Assembly (NCBI GenBank): GCA_049976505.1
Contig: JBMFIC010000003.1
Coordinates: 25,304-89,303, forward strand
Reading direction: 5' to 3'
DNA length: 64,000 nt
Source of the DNA: Nitrososphaeria archaeon
GTDB taxonomy: Archaea > Thermoproteota > Nitrososphaeria > Conexivisphaerales > UBA164
The notes under the pieces were generated by a model, which was not told the DNA's origin, did not search any database, and saw only the letters and a list, made by a program, of their open reading frames with translations. The position numbers and the translations under genes were made by a program. This document shows positions 3,970 through 11,303 of this stretch, in pieces (within the stretch, counting starts at the first letter, position 1; the number at the start of each line of letters is the position of its first letter).

Positions 3970-4378
3970 CTTTTTTCTTCAGGAGCGTTACGTTCTGAAT
4001 TTCTCTCAGCTGGTATACCCATTCCCTTCCCTCCTTTCTTCTCACCAGTTCTCCTCTGTCGTTCATTCTTCTGAGATACGTTGAAATTATAGGAAGCTTG
4101 ACGCTTATACTGTACCTGTCCTCAAGAACGGATTGGATGTCCTTTGACGTGAACCCCGTTAGGGGCATTTCCCTTATTATCTTTCTTAAAAGGCTGTAGA
4201 GGTCGCCGTCCGCCACTGTAATATCCTCGGCCTTCTTTTCCTGTTCACTTTCGGAAATAAGCTCGTAAAGCTCGAGAAGCCTGAGAACCTTATCCTTTTC
4301 TATATTCCCCTCTACTTTAAAGAGGTATTTCGCTCCATTCTCGTCCTCAAATTCCAGCTTTATTGCCTTCCTCGGCAA
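3959..4378 (-). CDS. Small winged-helix DNA-binding protein, origin-adjacent (function unknown)
   Basis: 139 aa with an acidic linker, then FTSKDIQSVLEDRYSISVKLPIISTYLRRMNDRGELVRRKEGREWVYQL (wHTH pattern). Divergent from orc1/cdc6 across the origin. Confidence 0.45.
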   Translation of the reverse strand: MPRKAIKLEFEDENGAKYLFKVEGNIEKDKVLRLLELYELISESEQEKKAEDITVADGDLYSLLRKIIREMPLTGFTSKDIQSVLEDRYSISVKLPIISTYLRRMNDRGELVRRKEGREWVYQLREIQNVTLLKKKVKK

Positions 4379-4519
4379 CTTTTACTTAATATTTGTTAAC
4401 AGCCCTTTAAAATAAAATTAAAGGCAAATTTTTGTTAACAAGTTATCAATCGCCTTTCTTTTAACTTCTGACCTTAACATACTTTAACAACAGCTATATT
4501 ACTGTGTTCTATCTTTGAG

Positions 4520-4550
4520 GCTCCACAGGCTCCAGAGGAAATGTAGGGGT
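4520..4550 (+). repeat. ORB element 1 (long form)
   Basis: GCTCCACAGGCTCCAGAGGAAATGTAGGGGT. 25/31 identical to ORB2. Confidence 0.75.
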
Positions 4551-4578
4551 CGATTAACGGTTAATGACGGATAACAGA

Positions 4579-4609
4579 GCTCCAGTAGCTCCAGAGGAAA
4601 CTAAGGGGT
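4579..4609 (+). repeat. ORB element 2 (long form)
   Basis: GCTCCAGTAGCTCCAGAGGAAACTAAGGGGT. Confidence 0.75.
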
Positions 4610-4674
4610 TCTCTTAATCATGTATAATCACTCAGATTAACAGAATCTTAACACATAGATTAATTAGACCCTCG

Positions 4675-4697
4675 CCCCCCATTTCCTCTGAATCCTC
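4675..4697 (-). repeat. ORB element 3 (inverted orientation)
   Basis: Plus strand CCCCCCATTTCCTCTGAATCCTC, which is the reverse complement of GAGGATTCAGAGGAAATGGGGGG. Confidence 0.7.
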
Positions 4698-4832
4698 TTA
4701 AAATCAGCCTTTCTATTATAGAATGATTTTTTGTTCATAGAAATTAGGTTAATTTTATTTTATTGATGGTGAATATTTTTTGTTTTTATGTTTTTAATTT
4801 ACTGATATTATAAATATTCATCGTTAAAAAGA

Positions 4833-4856
4833 TGCAGAGGAAAACAAGGGGTGTAG
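4833..4856 (+). repeat. ORB element 4 (mini-ORB), immediately before the orc1/cdc6 start
   Basis: TGCAGAGGAAAACAAGGGGTGTAG. Ends 7 nt before the ATG at 4863. Confidence 0.65.
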
Positions 4857-4862
4857 GGGTTA

Positions 4863-6068
4863 ATGTCCGATTTTCTTAATGAAATCTTCAATAAGGTAGC
4901 TTCTGGAAAATCGATATTCAAGAACAGAGAGGTTTTAAGCATAGATTATATTCCGGACAGGATACTTTTCAGAGACGAGCAGATAAAAAGAATAGGAGAG
5001 GCCCTCTCACCCATCATAAAGGGCTCCAAACCTTCGAATCTGCTTCTTTATGGAAAAACGGGCACCGGAAAGACCATGGTGGCAAGGTACGTCATTAACA
5101 GGTTGATGGGTTACGTTAAGGAAGCATCAACAGTCTTTGCTTATGTTAACTGCCGAATCAGTGGAACCCCCTACAGGGTTCTTAGTGAGGTAGCTGAGTT
5201 TATGGGACTGAAGATACCGTTTACTGGCCTCTCTATAAGTGAAGTTCAGAAAAGAATATTCGACCACATGATCAAGGAGAAGCTTAAGCTCCTTCTGGTC
5301 TTGGACGAGATAGATTTTCTTCTCAACTCACCAACAAAAAAAGACGTTGGTAACGACATACTCTATCAGTTAACAAGGTACGACAGCATATATTTCGTGC
5401 CGGGAAGCTTTATTACGCTGGTCGGGATCTCAAACGATCTCAAATTCGTCGAATATCTGGAGGGAAGAGTTTACAGCAGTATCAGAGCAGAGGAGATACT
5501 TTTTCCTCCTTATACCGCCGACGAGCTCCGCATGATACTTAAGGAAAGAGTTAAGGAGGCTTTTGTGGATGGAGCAGTAGGAGATGAGATAATTAACCTT
5601 ATAGCCGCCTATTCAGGCAGTGAGCACGGAGACGCGAGAAGGGCTGTAGATCTGCTGAGGGTTTCTGGAGAGCTCGCTGAAAGGGAGGGATCACAGAAAA
5701 TCCTGGAAAAACACGTTCAGGACGCATTGAAAAGCATAGAAAAGGACAAGGTCTTTGAAGCAATATCCTCGCTGCCAATCCACGAGAAGGCCGTTATTTA
5801 TTCCATTGCCAGCTTCCCGTCCGGAGAAACCACAGGTCACGTCTATCTTAAATACCAGGAAGTATGCGAAAAGCTCGGGCTTGATCCTCTAACGCAGAGA
5901 AGGATCAGCTCCATAATAAACGAGCTCGACATGCTGGGCCTCGTATCAGCTCCAATTATAAACAGGGGCAGGCACGGAAGATCTAAGAAGATACAGCTGG
6001 TAGTCGACAGAAGTCAAGTCTATGAAGCGTTGAAGAACGACGAGACCTTTAAGCTTCTGCTGACTTGA
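4863..6068 (+). CDS. cdc6: Orc1/Cdc6 replication initiator (AAA+ plus C-terminal winged helix)
   Basis: 401 aa. Walker A LYGKTGTGKT, Walker B LLLVLDEIDFL, typical DYIPDRILFRDEQI N-terminus. Confidence 0.95.
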   Translation: MSDFLNEIFNKVASGKSIFKNREVLSIDYIPDRILFRDEQIKRIGEALSPIIKGSKPSNLLLYGKTGTGKTMVARYVINRLMGYVKEASTVFAYVNCRISGTPYRVLSEVAEFMGLKIPFTGLSISEVQKRIFDHMIKEKLKLLLVLDEIDFLLNSPTKKDVGNDILYQLTRYDSIYFVPGSFITLVGISNDLKFVEYLEGRVYSSIRAEEILFPPYTADELRMILKERVKEAFVDGAVGDEIINLIAAYSGSEHGDARRAVDLLRVSGELAEREGSQKILEKHVQDALKSIEKDKVFEAISSLPIHEKAVIYSIASFPSGETTGHVYLKYQEVCEKLGLDPLTQRRISSIINELDMLGLVSAPIINRGRHGRSKKIQLVVDRSQVYEALKNDETFKLLLT

Positions 6069-6658: not shown

Positions 6659-6722
6659 ATCGCTTAAAATTTGTGAACATCCGTTTAAAAACTTATTCCC
6701 ATTAATGAGGCTCCATCTCGTT

Positions 6723-8768
6723 CTACAACAGCATAAGCAGCACTCCTATAAGCTTGATCGCTATAAAGGGGAGAACTACTCCACCTAGTCCATAAACCAG
6801 AACGTTTTCAAGAAATATCCTCCTTGGGGACTTGGGCTTAAGAGAGATCCCCTTGACGGCCAGCGGAAGCAGTATTGGTATAATAAAAGCGTTGTAGATA
6901 AGCGCTGCCAGAACGGCCACATCGAGGGGCAGCCGCAGTATGTTGAGATACCTTGCAGCTACGAGGAAGCTTATGAGAGCAGGCAGAACCACGAAGTACT
7001 TTGAAATGTCGTTGGCAATCGAGAAGGTTGCTATTGATCCCCGGGTAATCAGGAGCTGTTTGCCAAGCTTTATAACCTCAATGATCTTTGAGGGGTCGGA
7101 CTCCAGATCGATCATGTTCGCTGCTTCCTTAGCTACTTCAGTGCCGTTGTACATTGCCAGCCCAACGTTTGCTCTGGCAAGAGCTGGCGCATCGTTCGTG
7201 CCATCTCCTACCATCGCTATCGTTTTTCCCTGCTGCTGCTCCTCAACCACTTTTTTGTACTTATCCTCCGGCTTTGCTTGAGGTATAACGTTCTTTATTC
7301 CCACCTCGGCAGCTATCTTCTGTGCTGTGAGGGGATGATCGCCTGTTATCATGTAGATCTCGATGCCCATGCTCTGCAGCCTCTTTATTTCTTCCCTCAC
7401 GCCCTCCTTGATTATGTCCCTCAGCTCCAGCAGCCCTATAATTTCATCTCCAACGGCCACCGCAAGAGGCGTTCCGCCGTTCCTTGCGATTTCGTCGACT
7501 TTCTCTTCAAAGTCTGGGGGCGCATAGAAGAGCGTTTTCATTACGTCAGGGGCGCCCTTGAATATCGGGACCTTTTCGTTAAGGTACACGCCATAGAAAT
7601 CCGCCTTTTTAATCAGTCTAACCTCCTTGAAGAGGTCGCGGCCCGGAAGCCGCAGCGGCCTGTAAAGGATGCCGCTCCTCCGGGTCTTTGCAGAGAACTC
7701 TTCATAGAACGAGAGGACTGCCTGATCTATGTTCTCTGCTACGTATCCCATCCCCTCAAGATATCTCAGTATGGCCTTTCCTTCCTGAGTATCATCCTGC
7801 AGTGAGGCCAAGAAGAGGGCCTTTGCAACCTCCTCTTCCGTGTGCGAGTTAAGAGGGATAATCCTGATGGGCTCCCTTCTTCCTATGGTGATCGTGCCCG
7901 TTTTATCTAGAAGAACGACGTCGGTATCACCCGCCGCCTCTATCGCCTTTCCTGACTTTGATATCACCTTGATCTTCCAAAGCCGGATAAGCCCGGATAT
8001 TCCTATGGCTTCCTCTAGCGCACCTATTGTGGTTGGCAGAAGACAGACATAAAATCCCATAAGGACGGGGACGTTCAAAGGATAGCCCAGCAGATAGAGC
8101 GTAAGGCCTAGCGACACAATAACTAGCGAAAGCAAAACGGTCAAACCGTACAGTAAGGAGTCCAGCTGCCTTTCGCTTTCGCCCTTAGGTCTCTTGGTCC
8201 TTTCGATCATGCCTGCTATCCTGTAGACATATGACTCCTTCAGCGTCTTTGTTACCCTTATCTTTAGGTAGTCGCTCACAACTTTGCTGCCCGAAATCAC
8301 CTCGTCGTTTATCGATTTTATGACCGGCAGGGATTCGCCGGTCACGAGCGACTCATCGATGGCGGCAGTGCCCTCAACGATCACTCCGTCCAAAGGTATA
8401 ATTTCCCCTACCCGCACAAGAATTATATCTCCAACGCTTACGGCATCAGGAGGGACGTAGACCTCAGATGAATCAGGAAGGATCTTTCTGACGTTTATTG
8501 TGGAGGTTATTCTTATCAGTGAGGAAGCTGTTATTTTTGCCTGGTGTTCTGCATACGAATCCGCAAGAGTTCCAAACCAGACCGTTAAGAAGATCAGGAG
8601 AGCTATCCACGCATAGAATTCGCTGAGCTCGCGCGTCACTATCATGTAAATAAGAACTATAAAAAATGAAATCTCGCTGAGCAGCATAACCGGGTTTCTC
8701 TTCAGATAAAGCGGGCTCAGGCGTAATAACGAATTTTTAACTATGAAAAGATAATCCCTGAGCTCCAT
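6723..8768 (-). CDS. kdpB: Potassium-transporting P-type ATPase, subunit B
   Basis: 681 aa. DKTGTIT phosphorylation motif, MITGDHPLTA, VGDGTNDAPALA. Length and TM pattern match KdpB. Confidence 0.95.
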   Translation of the reverse strand: MELRDYLFIVKNSLLRLSPLYLKRNPVMLLSEISFFIVLIYMIVTRELSEFYAWIALLIFLTVWFGTLADSYAEHQAKITASSLIRITSTINVRKILPDSSEVYVPPDAVSVGDIILVRVGEIIPLDGVIVEGTAAIDESLVTGESLPVIKSINDEVISGSKVVSDYLKIRVTKTLKESYVYRIAGMIERTKRPKGESERQLDSLLYGLTVLLSLVIVSLGLTLYLLGYPLNVPVLMGFYVCLLPTTIGALEEAIGISGLIRLWKIKVISKSGKAIEAAGDTDVVLLDKTGTITIGRREPIRIIPLNSHTEEEVAKALFLASLQDDTQEGKAILRYLEGMGYVAENIDQAVLSFYEEFSAKTRRSGILYRPLRLPGRDLFKEVRLIKKADFYGVYLNEKVPIFKGAPDVMKTLFYAPPDFEEKVDEIARNGGTPLAVAVGDEIIGLLELRDIIKEGVREEIKRLQSMGIEIYMITGDHPLTAQKIAAEVGIKNVIPQAKPEDKYKKVVEEQQQGKTIAMVGDGTNDAPALARANVGLAMYNGTEVAKEAANMIDLESDPSKIIEVIKLGKQLLITRGSIATFSIANDISKYFVVLPALISFLVAARYLNILRLPLDVAVLAALIYNAFIIPILLPLAVKGISLKPKSPRRIFLENVLVYGLGGVVLPFIAIKLIGVLLMLL

Positions 8769-8774
8769 TTTTAT

Positions 8775-10292
8775 TCACCTCATGGACAGAGGACCAAGAG
8801 CTAGAAACGGAAGCACGGAGATGAAAACAAGCAACACAATGAAGAACGCCAGCACCAGCGAGAAAAGAGGCGTATTCGTTCTTATATCTGTCATTGAGAA
8901 GGACGGCTCCTTCTTAGAAAACGATTCAGAAAGCTTAAGTGCCAGATAAATCGGGACATATCTCCCCAAAACCATCAGCACGGAGGTTATTAGATTCAGG
9001 CTTATCGTGTTTCCTAAGAAGCCGTAATAATCGGAGCCGTTGTTAACCGCCGCAGAGACGACCTCCCACAGAAGCTGCGTAAAATTGAATCCTACAGAAA
9101 AGCTGAAGCCCTTTACAGAGATCAGGCTTATCGGTATTGCAGAAAGGACCAGAGCAAAATGAAATATATAGCCTATAACCGATAAGTTGATGTCCCTCGT
9201 ATCCAGCCTGAATCCAAGGTATTTCGGCATCCTGCCGCTCATCAGCGAGGAGAAGAATATCGTTATTATTATGATAAATAAAAGCGAAATGAATCCAGTT
9301 CCGACTGTACCTGGCAGGCTGTCACTCAGCATCAAAACAATGAATATCGATGTCTGTAGTGGGGAAAGGGCGCTGATGGGAAAGACCGAAGCCCCGGTAT
9401 TAGTAGCTATGGAGGCATAGAAGAGCGAGAGGGCGGAGATCGTGCTCATCTGCGAAGCTATGTTCTGTTTCAACGCAAGGGGCGTGGAGGCCAACAACAA
9501 TAACATCAATAAATAGTAAAACAGGCCAACAACAATGAACATTGTCGTGGAGTTCTGGAGATCTCTTGAAACAAGCCCAAAAAGAAAAACAACGCTGAAT
9601 GGGAAAAGATACAACAAAACGATGTAAAAATAAGCTACTGCAGCGCTTGGCATAGAGGACGCGGCAGCAACGCCTTGGGCAAAGTAGGCTCCACCGTTGT
9701 TGCCTAGAAGCGTAATGCTGTTATAATAAGCAAGAGGGGAAGGCAGAAAACCAGCCAGCCTTGAGAACGGATAACCAAAAGGCACGCCTAGCAACAGCGC
9801 GATTAGGCTTGAGACAAACGATGTCAGTGAGAAGATCAGCAAGGAAATAAAAAAATCGCTGTAGAAATTCCCGAGTTTTTTGAAAAAGATCCCCCTAATA
9901 GTTGCCACAACTGCGGACAGCCCAGTTGACGGCGCAACAAACTGCAAAAAGGTTAGACCGATGGTCTGGATGATGAACGGTATCTGTTGATTAACGTAGT
10001 GCTGAAGGTTCGTATTTGTGATATATGATGTGATGATGTTTAACCATAGCAGCCTATAATGTGATGTTACAAAGCCGAGCCAGATTGAAATCAACGCAAT
10101 AGCTGAGGCAAGCAGATTCACCAGCAGAAGGCTTCCGAAGTACTGAGTCGCATTCATATCATATCTGAATATGTAAAATAATTTGGAATCAAAGAACATC
10201 TTTTTAATTATTAGCGCAAGCATAAAAGATGATACTAGGGCTAAAATATTAGGCCCTATGAGCCAGACAATGTAGCTGAGTATTATGTTCAT
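8775..10292 (-). CDS. kdpA: Potassium-transporting ATPase, channel-like subunit A (divergent)
   Basis: 505 aa polytopic protein. The four KdpA selectivity-filter-like motifs are recognisable (SYITNTNLQHY, LGNNGGAYF, ATNTGAS, SAAVNNGSDY). Sits directly upstream of kdpB. Confidence 0.85.
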   Translation of the reverse strand: MNIILSYIVWLIGPNILALVSSFMLALIIKKMFFDSKLFYIFRYDMNATQYFGSLLLVNLLASAIALISIWLGFVTSHYRLLWLNIITSYITNTNLQHYVNQQIPFIIQTIGLTFLQFVAPSTGLSAVVATIRGIFFKKLGNFYSDFFISLLIFSLTSFVSSLIALLLGVPFGYPFSRLAGFLPSPLAYYNSITLLGNNGGAYFAQGVAAASSMPSAAVAYFYIVLLYLFPFSVVFLFGLVSRDLQNSTTMFIVVGLFYYLLMLLLLASTPLALKQNIASQMSTISALSLFYASIATNTGASVFPISALSPLQTSIFIVLMLSDSLPGTVGTGFISLLFIIIITIFFSSLMSGRMPKYLGFRLDTRDINLSVIGYIFHFALVLSAIPISLISVKGFSFSVGFNFTQLLWEVVSAAVNNGSDYYGFLGNTISLNLITSVLMVLGRYVPIYLALKLSESFSKKEPSFSMTDIRTNTPLFSLVLAFFIVLLVFISVLPFLALGPLSMR

Positions 10293-10293
10293 T

Positions 10294-10824
10294 TTACCTT
10301 TTTAGTAGCGTTCTACCCTTATCACTTATAGTGTATTTAAAAGGTTTTTTGTCGTTTGTTCTGATTAAATAGCCTTCAGCGTAGAGCTGAGCTAGAAGCC
10401 TAGATGCGTGTTCTCTTGTAACATTAAGCAGAGACATCACATCACGTGCTGTAATCTCATGTTCCATTGCTACAGAAAGAACCCTCAACTTGCTGTCGTT
10501 AATCTGAGGCGCTTTTTCCTTTGTTTCAACTAGGTGAATAGTGGAATCAACGTTGGTTATTGCAGGCGAGGTCGGTTTATGCACTTCCGAGCGTCCTTTG
10601 TTTATCTCGCCGAGCAAATCTTCGAGGACCTTAGCATTTGTAGCATAGCTTTTAACTATCTGATGAATTAAATCGATGTTTTCGGCGTACACTCTGTAAA
10701 TATAAATAAAAAAGGCTAGATCGATGGCTGAGATTATAAGCGCAATTACAGAGAGTATTAGTGATGTTGTGATAACTACCATGATATCCATATTGTGATT
10801 TGACATCAAAATAAGCTTTTGCAT
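10294..10824 (-). CDS. Membrane-anchored winged-helix (MarR/TrmB-like) protein, first gene of the kdp cluster
   Basis: One N-terminal TM helix (IMVVITTSLILSVIALIISAIDLAFFIYIY). C-terminal wHTH ITARDVMSLLNVTREHASRLLAQLYAEGYLIRTNDKKPFKYTISDKGRTLL. Its stop TAA is 1 nt from the kdpA ATG (TAAAATG). ATG at 10824 preferred over TTG at 10842. Confidence 0.5.
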   Translation of the reverse strand: MQKLILMSNHNMDIMVVITTSLILSVIALIISAIDLAFFIYIYRVYAENIDLIHQIVKSYATNAKVLEDLLGEINKGRSEVHKPTSPAITNVDSTIHLVETKEKAPQINDSKLRVLSVAMEHEITARDVMSLLNVTREHASRLLAQLYAEGYLIRTNDKKPFKYTISDKGRTLLKR

Positions 10825-10874
10825 CCTAATGATAACAACCAAAAAAGAGCTGCCATAAAGCCTGAAACATTTAT

Positions 10875-10892
10875 CTATACAAATTTGTATAG
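10875..10892. promoter_or_regulatory. Perfect 18-bp palindrome in a divergent promoter region (candidate operator)
   Basis: CTATACAAATTTGTATAG reads identically on both strands. It lies in the gap between the wHTH-kdp start (10824 or 10842, so 56-74 bp) and ORF 10899. Confidence 0.45.
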
Positions 10893-10898
10893 TACTTT

Positions 10899-11303
10899 AT
10901 GCCTACTATAAAAGATCATGAAATTGATAACACCGTATTAGACTATTTTCTGCAGAGCAGTTGTTTAACAAAATTGGAATTTATAGCTCTTTTTAATGAT
11001 TATTTGATGAACAATTCGCAGTTAAAAGAGCATTTTAAACACGATTTAGACAAATTTCTCAAAAAACCATCCGGCGAAAGATCAACTTTAAAAAGGAGGG
11101 GAATCGAAAACCTGACCAGCTGTTTTATGACGGTCGTTGCACTTTTAGCTTTGCAGGCGCTGAGCGGCGATGACCTGCAGCTTTTGATAAAGCTAGGTGA
11201 GACGCTTAAGGATGTGCTACTATTGGAGAATAGTGATGAAGTAGTTTATAACTTAAGATCTATATTGAAAAGAATAATAAAAAGGAAGGACACAGCTGAA
11301 TAA
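10899..11303 (+). CDS. Hypothetical helical protein (no recognisable family)
   Basis: 134-aa ORF in an AT-rich segment, divergent from the wHTH-kdp cluster. No motif recognised. Confidence 0.35.
   Translation: MPTIKDHEIDNTVLDYFLQSSCLTKLEFIALFNDYLMNNSQLKEHFKHDLDKFLKKPSGERSTLKRRGIENLTSCFMTVVALLALQALSGDDLQLLIKLGETLKDVLLLENSDEVVYNLRSILKRIIKRKDTAE

Follow-up and report, generated by a model that had tools for sequence, protein, structure and literature searches.

The 64,000-nt stretch of DNA analyzed here (the window) comes from a Nitrososphaeria archaeon (Conexivisphaerales; UBA164; assembly GCA_049976505.1, contig JBMFIC010000003.1, positions 25,304–89,303 of the forward strand) and carries three minus-strand open reading frames (ORFs) in the same direction, at 10294–10842, 8775–10292, and 6723–8768. 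The first encodes a protein with a predicted transmembrane (TM) helix and a winged helix-turn-helix (wHTH) domain, and the other two encode the subunits KdpA and KdpB of a K+ pump. The stop codon of the wHTH gene (10296–10294) and the ATG of kdpA (10292) are 1 nt apart in a TAAAATG junction (...AAAAGG TAA A ATG AAC...), and there are 6 nt between kdpA and kdpB; an AGGTGA sequence is located 6 nt before the ATG of kdpB. Downstream of kdpB there are 64 nt followed by rpl21e (6658–6359) and then by an Rpb4/RpoF gene, with no kdpC in between. An earlier reading of the window from its letters (the original prediction) had given this three-ORF cluster, its junction, the distance to rpl21e, and the absence of kdpC from the locus exactly. 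The host genome searches reported below cover the contigs of the 1.32-Mb assembly, which is 92% complete, and the taxon names of the host and its relatives are those of the database sources.

Profile scores and alignments to the Escherichia coli proteins confirm that a KdpA with loops resembling a selectivity filter adjoins a KdpB with DKTGT and GDGTND motifs, as had been proposed. The 505-aa product of the second ORF (8775–10292, minus strand) matches PF03814 with 231 bits (cut-off 22.6) and E. coli KdpA (6hra_A) with an E value of 2e-30, and its four filter loops, SYITNTNLQHY, LLGNNGGAYF, TNTGAS, and AAVNNGSDYYG, align with those of E. coli (TNTNxQ, GNNGG, TNTGA, and NNGS). It is a divergent channel-like subunit, scoring 149 bits against TIGR00680, for which the NCBIfam equivalog cut-off is 387.7. 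The 681-aa product of the third ORF (6723–8768, minus strand) scores 620 bits against TIGR01497, over the cut-off of 527.9, matches E. coli KdpB (6hra_B) with an E value of 2e-144, and in that alignment keeps all catalytic and K+-site motifs: TGES, CLLPTTIGAL (PTTIG), DKTGT, GDGTNDAPAL, and SIANDISKYF (SIANDxxKYF). Compared across species, the channel and accessory subunits, KdpA and KdpC, evolve much faster than the ATPase KdpB, with identities to the closest species (G004) of 86% for KdpA, 97% for KdpB, and 93–94% for KdpC, and to more distant species of the genus of 49–54%, 75–78%, and 50–57%, respectively. In two relatives (G006, contig C34, and G035, contig C13) the kdpA matches come in three and at least five pieces, one with TGA stops, and may be decaying genes or assembly errors.

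From the lack of kdpC at the locus the original prediction had raised the possibility of a KdpC-independent pump, and it had named a kdpC gene elsewhere in the genome as evidence to the contrary. Such a gene is present. A search of the whole assembly found one 159-aa frame on contig C7 that matches PF02669 with 42 bits (cut-off 24.1) and has an N-terminal hydrophobic helix and an FPxQAxG motif, and its P-Q-G and VN-N-LN motifs are invariant among relatives. The protein is ~30 residues shorter than KdpC of E. coli and does not cover the central part of the Pfam profile (positions 65–124), a gap shared by the homologs in all relatives searched. A phmmer search against PDB sequences gave no match at an E value of 1 or less; the top seven matches of the AlphaFold model of this protein (built on 13 relatives, pLDDT 84) in a fold search of the PDB are E. 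coli KdpC chains (E values 7.6e-5 to 2.4e-3, TM-score ~0.5), and the eighth match has an E value of 0.69. Because kdpC is present on another contig, the host has a split system of KdpAB and KdpC rather than a pump lacking KdpC.

The separation is conserved. Among the genera g1 (to which the host belongs), g3, and g4, kdpC lies off the kdpAB contig in eight of nine g1 genomes, the host included, and in all four g3 genomes, together 12 of the 14 that have the split arrangement; in other genera kdpC is on the kdpA contig, within ~3 kb, in 13 of the 14 genomes that have both genes (the exception being G029). The two split-arrangement genomes in which kdpC was not found, G003 (g1, 81% complete) and the single g4 genome G011 (84% complete), together with the locus itself could be taken to indicate that the pump works as KdpAB alone. 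The incompleteness of both genomes, and the intact gene in the other 12, with its invariant motifs and a KdpC fold in the model, make this highly improbable, and the split locus does not overturn the requirement for KdpC. In the host (L001:771–1962 on C7), kdpC shares 11 nt with the 3' end of a nucleoside-phosphorylase gene (PNP_UDP_1; hereafter PNP) and abuts priS. The overlap recurs in eight of nine loci from relatives, the ninth ending at a contig edge, and spans two genera, and priS adjoins kdpC in the host and in 6/6 g1 loci. A pump subunit is thereby joined to a gene of nucleoside salvage for no obvious reason.

The leading ORF encodes 182 aa if read from TTG 10842, 176 aa from ATG 10824, and 162 aa from ATG 10782. 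The last is most likely the start, giving a gene at 10294–10782 (minus strand), because no in-frame start precedes this Met in the closest relative (66% identity), homologs align from it, 162 aa is also the length of database clusters at 94% and 65% identity, the ESM Atlas record begins at the same Met, and a conserved box resembling a B-recognition element (BRE) and TATA box falls inside the longer ORF. Of the ~176-aa protein with one N-terminal TM helix and a C-terminal wHTH domain that had been proposed, the domain layout is therefore upheld by prediction but the length is not. The best hydrophobic 19-mer lies at the very N-terminus, with a Kyte–Doolittle (KD) value of 2.75, and KD values of 1.6–3.1 are found in 40 of 40 family members. 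Acidic residues precede this segment in many members and basic residues follow it, a pattern that predicts an N-terminus outside and a C-terminus inside the cell. In the AlphaFold2 model (40-sequence alignment, pLDDT 79.8) a continuous TM-plus-stalk helix (residues 2–65) is followed by a disordered linker (68–93) and a wHTH domain of three helices and two strands (96–161). The chain opens directly with the TM helix and has no extracytoplasmic domain. Foldseek matches the wHTH domain to the cores of ZitR, SqrR, HlyU, MarR, and BldR (E values from 1e-4, root-mean-square deviation 1.8–2.8 Å over the C-terminal 65–75 residues), and the family alignment contains a motif, TREHxSR...KPxxY, in which R, E, H, R, P, and Y are invariant. 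Matches to the Pfam models MarR_2, HTH_Crp_2, and HTH_27 are all under the gathering scores (24.4 against 27 for MarR_2). With a sub-cut-off score and a predicted wHTH core that comes only after the linker, the protein does not appear to belong to the MarR family (PF01047, PF12802), and it has, by prediction, the TM region and DNA-binding domain that define transmembrane transcription regulators (TTRs).

A gene for a protein that opens with one TM helix, placed immediately 5' of kdpA where kdpF would stand, invites the explanation that this helix replaces KdpF as a fourth subunit packed on KdpA and tethers the DNA-binding domain to the pump. The assembly gave no match to the KdpF model PF09604 at an E value of 10 or less, although the model has 24 positions and such peptides are easily missed. 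However, none of three N-terminal segments of the family matches PF09604 at that threshold, family members from genomes without kdp have the same N-terminal helix, and visual inspection of the 400 nt ahead of kdpA in three canonical kdpABC operons from relatives revealed no ORF resembling KdpF. A complex prediction of KdpA with residues 1–66 of the wHTH protein scored 0.00; its controls did not fold, so that it is evidence neither way. We consider such a substitution very unlikely.

Homologs of the wHTH protein were identified in 27 of 41 related genomes and in 11 of 15 genera, and 59 further database clusters of the family carry names ranging from Conexivisphaerales to Nitrososphaeraceae. In the host family (17 genomes), 14 genomes carry the gene, and kdpA directly follows it in every one; the order wHTH gene–kdpA–kdpB is found in 12/12 loci from three genera, in which the first junction varies between an overlap of 8 nt and a gap of 13 nt. 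Where no kdp genes are nearby (six loci, five genera), the wHTH gene is invariably located between cdc6 and pcrB, and it is accompanied there by a gene for a second wHTH protein, which is soluble, a gene for an Elf1-like zinc-ribbon protein, and ORFs of the size of hyp134, the gene that neighbors the wHTH gene in the host. One genome with a kdp-free wHTH locus has a canonical kdpABC on a different contig. The presence of the wHTH gene at the same place in genomes without kdp there means that the wHTH family predates the link to kdp. In genera with canonical kdpABC the wHTH gene is elsewhere or lacking (0/3 genomes in g2 and 0/7 in g6); two of the three g2 genomes have kdpA matches and two have kdpC matches, and in the one having both, kdpABC is contiguous. 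The anatomy of a membrane-tethered regulator of kdp, as suggested by the original prediction, thus stands, with a predicted TM helix and wHTH domain, a tight junction, and unbroken adjacency, but the family is older and wider than its association with kdp.

These distributions bear on the explanation that the protein is a dedicated one-component sensor of K+, turgor, or membrane state that switches kdpAB in place of KdpD/KdpE. The N-terminal domain of KdpD, PF02702, gave no match at an E value of 1 or less in the assembly, in agreement with the original prediction. That result, the wHTH gene at the head of kdpAB in all 14 family genomes carrying it, and a conserved palindrome upstream of it all favor such a sensor, and the accessible text of a survey of TTRs presents them as a known route for membrane signals (PMC10269533). 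On the other side, both family and palindrome also occur, with the architecture unchanged, in genomes without kdp at the locus; genera with canonical kdpABC do without the wHTH gene or have it on another contig; the protein opens with its TM helix and has nothing outside the membrane to sense with; and kdpC is under a different promoter. Because the protein has no external domain and was at the site before kdp, we rate a dedicated role as unlikely, and most likely the wHTH protein is not a dedicated K+ sensor. A further possibility, to which we likewise give little weight, is that it is a sensor-less regulator responding directly to the condition of the membrane, such as its potential, lipid packing, or tension, and has captured kdpAB into its own leaderless operon in three acidophilic Conexivisphaerales genera, which would create a KdpD/KdpE-independent circuit setting the level of the pump that generates the reversed membrane potential.

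Upstream of the wHTH gene, the BRE/TATA-like box AAAAGCTTATTTTGA (10820–10806, minus strand) is centered ~30 nt before ATG 10782, and an A/T-rich box is located at equal distance from the conserved Met codon in 12/12 related loci, as judged by eye. In archaeal promoters the TATA box is centered ~26–27 nt ahead of the transcription start. The position of the box and this usual spacing together suggest a leaderless or near-leaderless wHTH–kdpA–kdpB mRNA, of which AAAAGCTTATTTTGA is probably the promoter. At the other end of the cluster, the 64-nt kdpB–rpl21e spacer (6659–6722, minus strand) contains a T5 run and, ~30 nt ahead of the ATG of rpl21e, a TTTTTAAA box and probably comprises the end of the kdp unit and the rpl21e promoter. 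Scans for bacterial sigma-70 promoters and terminators are uninformative for an archaeal host. In a relative with a canonical operon (G018, L034:8700–8860), kdpA is preceded by a run of CTCTTCCTCC(CA) repeats.

The intergenic region between the wHTH gene and hyp134 also contains a perfect 18-bp palindrome, CTATACAAATTTGTATAG (10875–10892, no strand assigned), which precedes the ATG of hyp134 by 6 nt and that of the wHTH gene, on the other side, by 93 nt. The pattern CTATA-N8-TATAG occurs once per locus in all 12 kdp-linked loci and always in this intergenic region. Among five unlinked loci, TATACA-N4-TGTATA is found just upstream of the hyp134 homolog in two and as a near-copy in a third, and exact copies lie within ~1 kb of weaker wHTH matches in two further genomes. 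Because the palindrome is present at unlinked loci too, it is an element of the old hyp134/wHTH module and not of kdp. The exact 18-mer is unique in the host genome, where the only other match within three mismatches is at a contig end beside seemingly fragmentary ORFs, and the degenerate pattern TATAYA-N4-TRTATA is about as frequent genome-wide as a reversed control; a unique 18-mer and an unenriched degenerate pattern argue against a large regulon. We infer that the palindrome is a candidate operator bound by the wHTH protein. A copy in the PNP gene upstream of kdpC (C7:28062) was treated as chance, given that the degenerate pattern is not enriched over the control.

Taken together, we favor, with moderate confidence, the reading that the host has a genuine KdpABC pump with split genes, the kdpAB part of which has been captured in the probably leaderless operon of an older transmembrane wHTH regulator. 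To the observed identities of the genes, their conserved split organization, and a wHTH family older than its link to kdp, this reading adds co-transcription, DNA binding at the palindrome, and a regulatory consequence for kdp, which we infer. kdpAB would have been placed once, in the ancestor of three genera, downstream of a regulator gene already present near cdc6 and the probable replication origin, and the wHTH gene, kdpA, and kdpB would form one operon read from the promoter of the wHTH gene, with KdpC supplied from a presumed PNP–kdpC transcript. The membrane-anchored protein, in which a long stalk helix and a flexible linker connect an N-terminus outside the cell to a wHTH domain in the cytoplasm, would be a transmembrane transcription regulator acting, through the palindrome, on the promoter region of its own gene and, by way of the common transcript, would also set the level of kdpAB. 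Neither TrkH (PF02386) nor Kup (PF02705) was found in the host assembly, so that Kdp may be the main or only dedicated K+ uptake system of the host; together with the role of Kdp as an acid-adaptation trait, this fits a constantly needed pump expressed from a housekeeping promoter.

Several points weigh against this account. Co-transcription and leaderless initiation are read from spacing and sequence; kdpA may have a promoter of its own within the 3'-terminal part of the wHTH gene; and the palindrome, standing at the start of hyp134, may serve hyp134 alone or be a bidirectional TATA element, its degenerate form being no more frequent than the control. The wHTH domain is below every Pfam gathering cut-off, and KdpA, well short of the equivalog cut-off and faster evolving than KdpB, may have an altered substrate or gating. 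kdpC, moreover, was not found in two of the genomes concerned. A separate kdpA promoter leads to the explanation that the juxtaposition has no regulatory meaning, kdpAB being read from a promoter within the 3' coding part of a wHTH gene whose product regulates hyp134 and itself, or unrelated targets. The wHTH gene was indeed at the site before kdpAB, and a TATAAG-like stretch is found 31–37 nt upstream of the kdpA ATG within the wHTH coding sequence. That stretch, however, encodes conserved residues of the wHTH wing and is explained by coding, and the junction is tight or overlapping in all 12 loci of three genera, so that we regard a meaningless juxtaposition as improbable.

The single capture of kdpAB that we propose agrees with the phylogeny of KdpB. 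In a quick tree, KdpB of g1, g3, and g4 is monophyletic (SH-aLRT 100) and joined by a long stem apart from other Nitrososphaeria KdpB, which is consistent with kdpAB having come to lie behind the regulator gene in one event. Because of the long branches of g6 and g4 the deeper relations in this tree are unsafe, and we claim neither a donor nor a direction of transfer; the KdpB clade could descend from a canonical operon or stem from a separate transfer, two origins that look alike in a tree of this kind.

Base composition gives no support for a recent lateral origin of the kdp genes. The original prediction had described the cluster as richer in AT than its surroundings and had read this as a sign of lateral origin, a description that does not apply to the kdp genes: in a genome with a GC content of 0.51, kdpB (GC 0.491) has a GC content at third codon positions (GC3) of 0.573 compared with 0.576 for the arginyl-tRNA synthetase gene (GC 0.476), and kdpA (GC 0.44, GC3 0.534) is close to cdc6, rpoF, and pcrB (GC 0.444–0.449). 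The segment 6723–10842 has a GC content of 0.457, at the 6.8th percentile among windows of equal size, and is not below its flanks. Only the wHTH gene (GC 0.393, GC3 0.374) and hyp134 (GC 0.353, GC3 0.378) are AT-rich, and because these are the anciently conserved pair the argument from AT-richness fails. Conservation over three genera also speaks against a recent lateral origin.

The conserved neighbor hyp134 (10899–11303, plus strand; 134 aa) is divergent from the wHTH gene in the host. It matches no Pfam or NCBIfam model, and in 11 of the 12 kdp-linked loci a homolog adjoins the wHTH gene; the remaining locus is cut by a contig edge. ORFs of similar size, not scored as hyp134 homologs, lie directly upstream of the wHTH gene in five unlinked loci, apparently in the same direction as that gene. 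Beyond hyp134 in the host are pcrB (GGGP synthase family) and the gene for arginyl-tRNA synthetase, and on the other side cdc6/orc1 (4863–6068) is convergent with the genes on the kdp side. Adjoining cdc6 is a gene (3995–4378, minus strand) for a soluble protein of ~128 aa with a C-terminal wHTH domain, 32–39% identical to L027:3386–3796 and relatives. In other Nitrososphaeria this second wHTH gene is a conserved convergent or adjacent neighbor of the TM-wHTH gene; in the host, cdc6, rpoF, rpl21e, and kdpAB stand between the two. An AT-rich spacer (4380–4860, GC 0.35–0.40) between the second wHTH gene and cdc6 contains a CTCCAGAGGAAA...GGGGT element in three direct copies (4520, 4579, and 4822) and one inverted copy (4675). 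These elements resemble archaeal origin-recognition boxes, and the spacer is probably the replication origin. The kdpAB operon lies 2–6 kb from this probable origin.

Two studies regard Kdp as a key trait in the acid adaptation of non-ammonia-oxidizing Nitrososphaeria and describe kdpABC in these lineages as acquired by gene transfer and associated with a reversed membrane potential (PMC10833072; bioRxiv 10.1101/2025.10.01.679748). How kdp is regulated in archaea without KdpD/KdpE is hardly known. The split arrangement demonstrates that kdpC can stand apart from kdpAB and the genes nevertheless stay conserved, and surveys in which kdpABC is recognized by its operon context would therefore overlook or misjudge such systems. 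This clade also ties the pump to a conserved, uncharacterized thaumarchaeal TM-wHTH protein, for which the palindrome and the downstream operon offer a testable entry to its function. None of the titles and abstracts retrieved from the literature describes an unlinked kdpC or this wHTH family.

Compared with KdpFABC of E. coli (5mrw, 6hra, 7bh1), the host system has the same KdpA filter loops, KdpB P-type and K+-site motifs, and KdpC fold, and all three subunits can be assigned. Unlike the E. coli genes, they do not form a single, contiguous kdp(F)ABC operon; kdpC lies apart from kdpAB, in an overlap with PNP, KdpA is very divergent, KdpC is shorter, and no KdpF was found. Nor was a KdpD found in the host genome, which sets the system apart from a KdpD/KdpE-controlled regulon. 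The canonical kdpABC operons of other Conexivisphaerales and Nitrososphaeria share the three subunits, the host class, and a presumed role in K+ uptake and in a reversed membrane potential in acid habitats. In 13 of the 14 such genomes that have both genes kdpC follows kdpB on one contig, and KdpA scores 470–630 bits, whereas here kdpC is elsewhere and a TM-wHTH gene leads, and KdpB of the host clade forms a long separate branch with 45–48% identity to the canonical Nitrososphaeria proteins.

The wHTH protein resembles the MarR/ArsR-type repressors (ZitR, SqrR, HlyU, MarR, BldR) in its superposable wHTH core but has no MarR dimerization helices flanking that core and is, by prediction, anchored in the membrane through a long helix followed by a disordered linker. 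Like the TTRs ToxR and CadC it is a one-component protein that combines a single predicted TM segment with a DNA-binding domain. In ToxR and CadC the DNA-binding domain is cytoplasmic and N-terminal and the sensor is periplasmic and C-terminal; the wHTH protein has the reverse domain order and no extracytoplasmic domain. The original prediction had regarded neither of its two arrangements as a described system; membrane-tethered one-component regulators are a described class, and in the accessible text of the TTR survey single-pass forms are the commonest and archaea average ~4 TTRs per genome (PMC10269533). The pump itself is ordinary, and what is mildly novel is the organizational variant that joins kdp to an uncharacterized thaumarchaeal regulator family.

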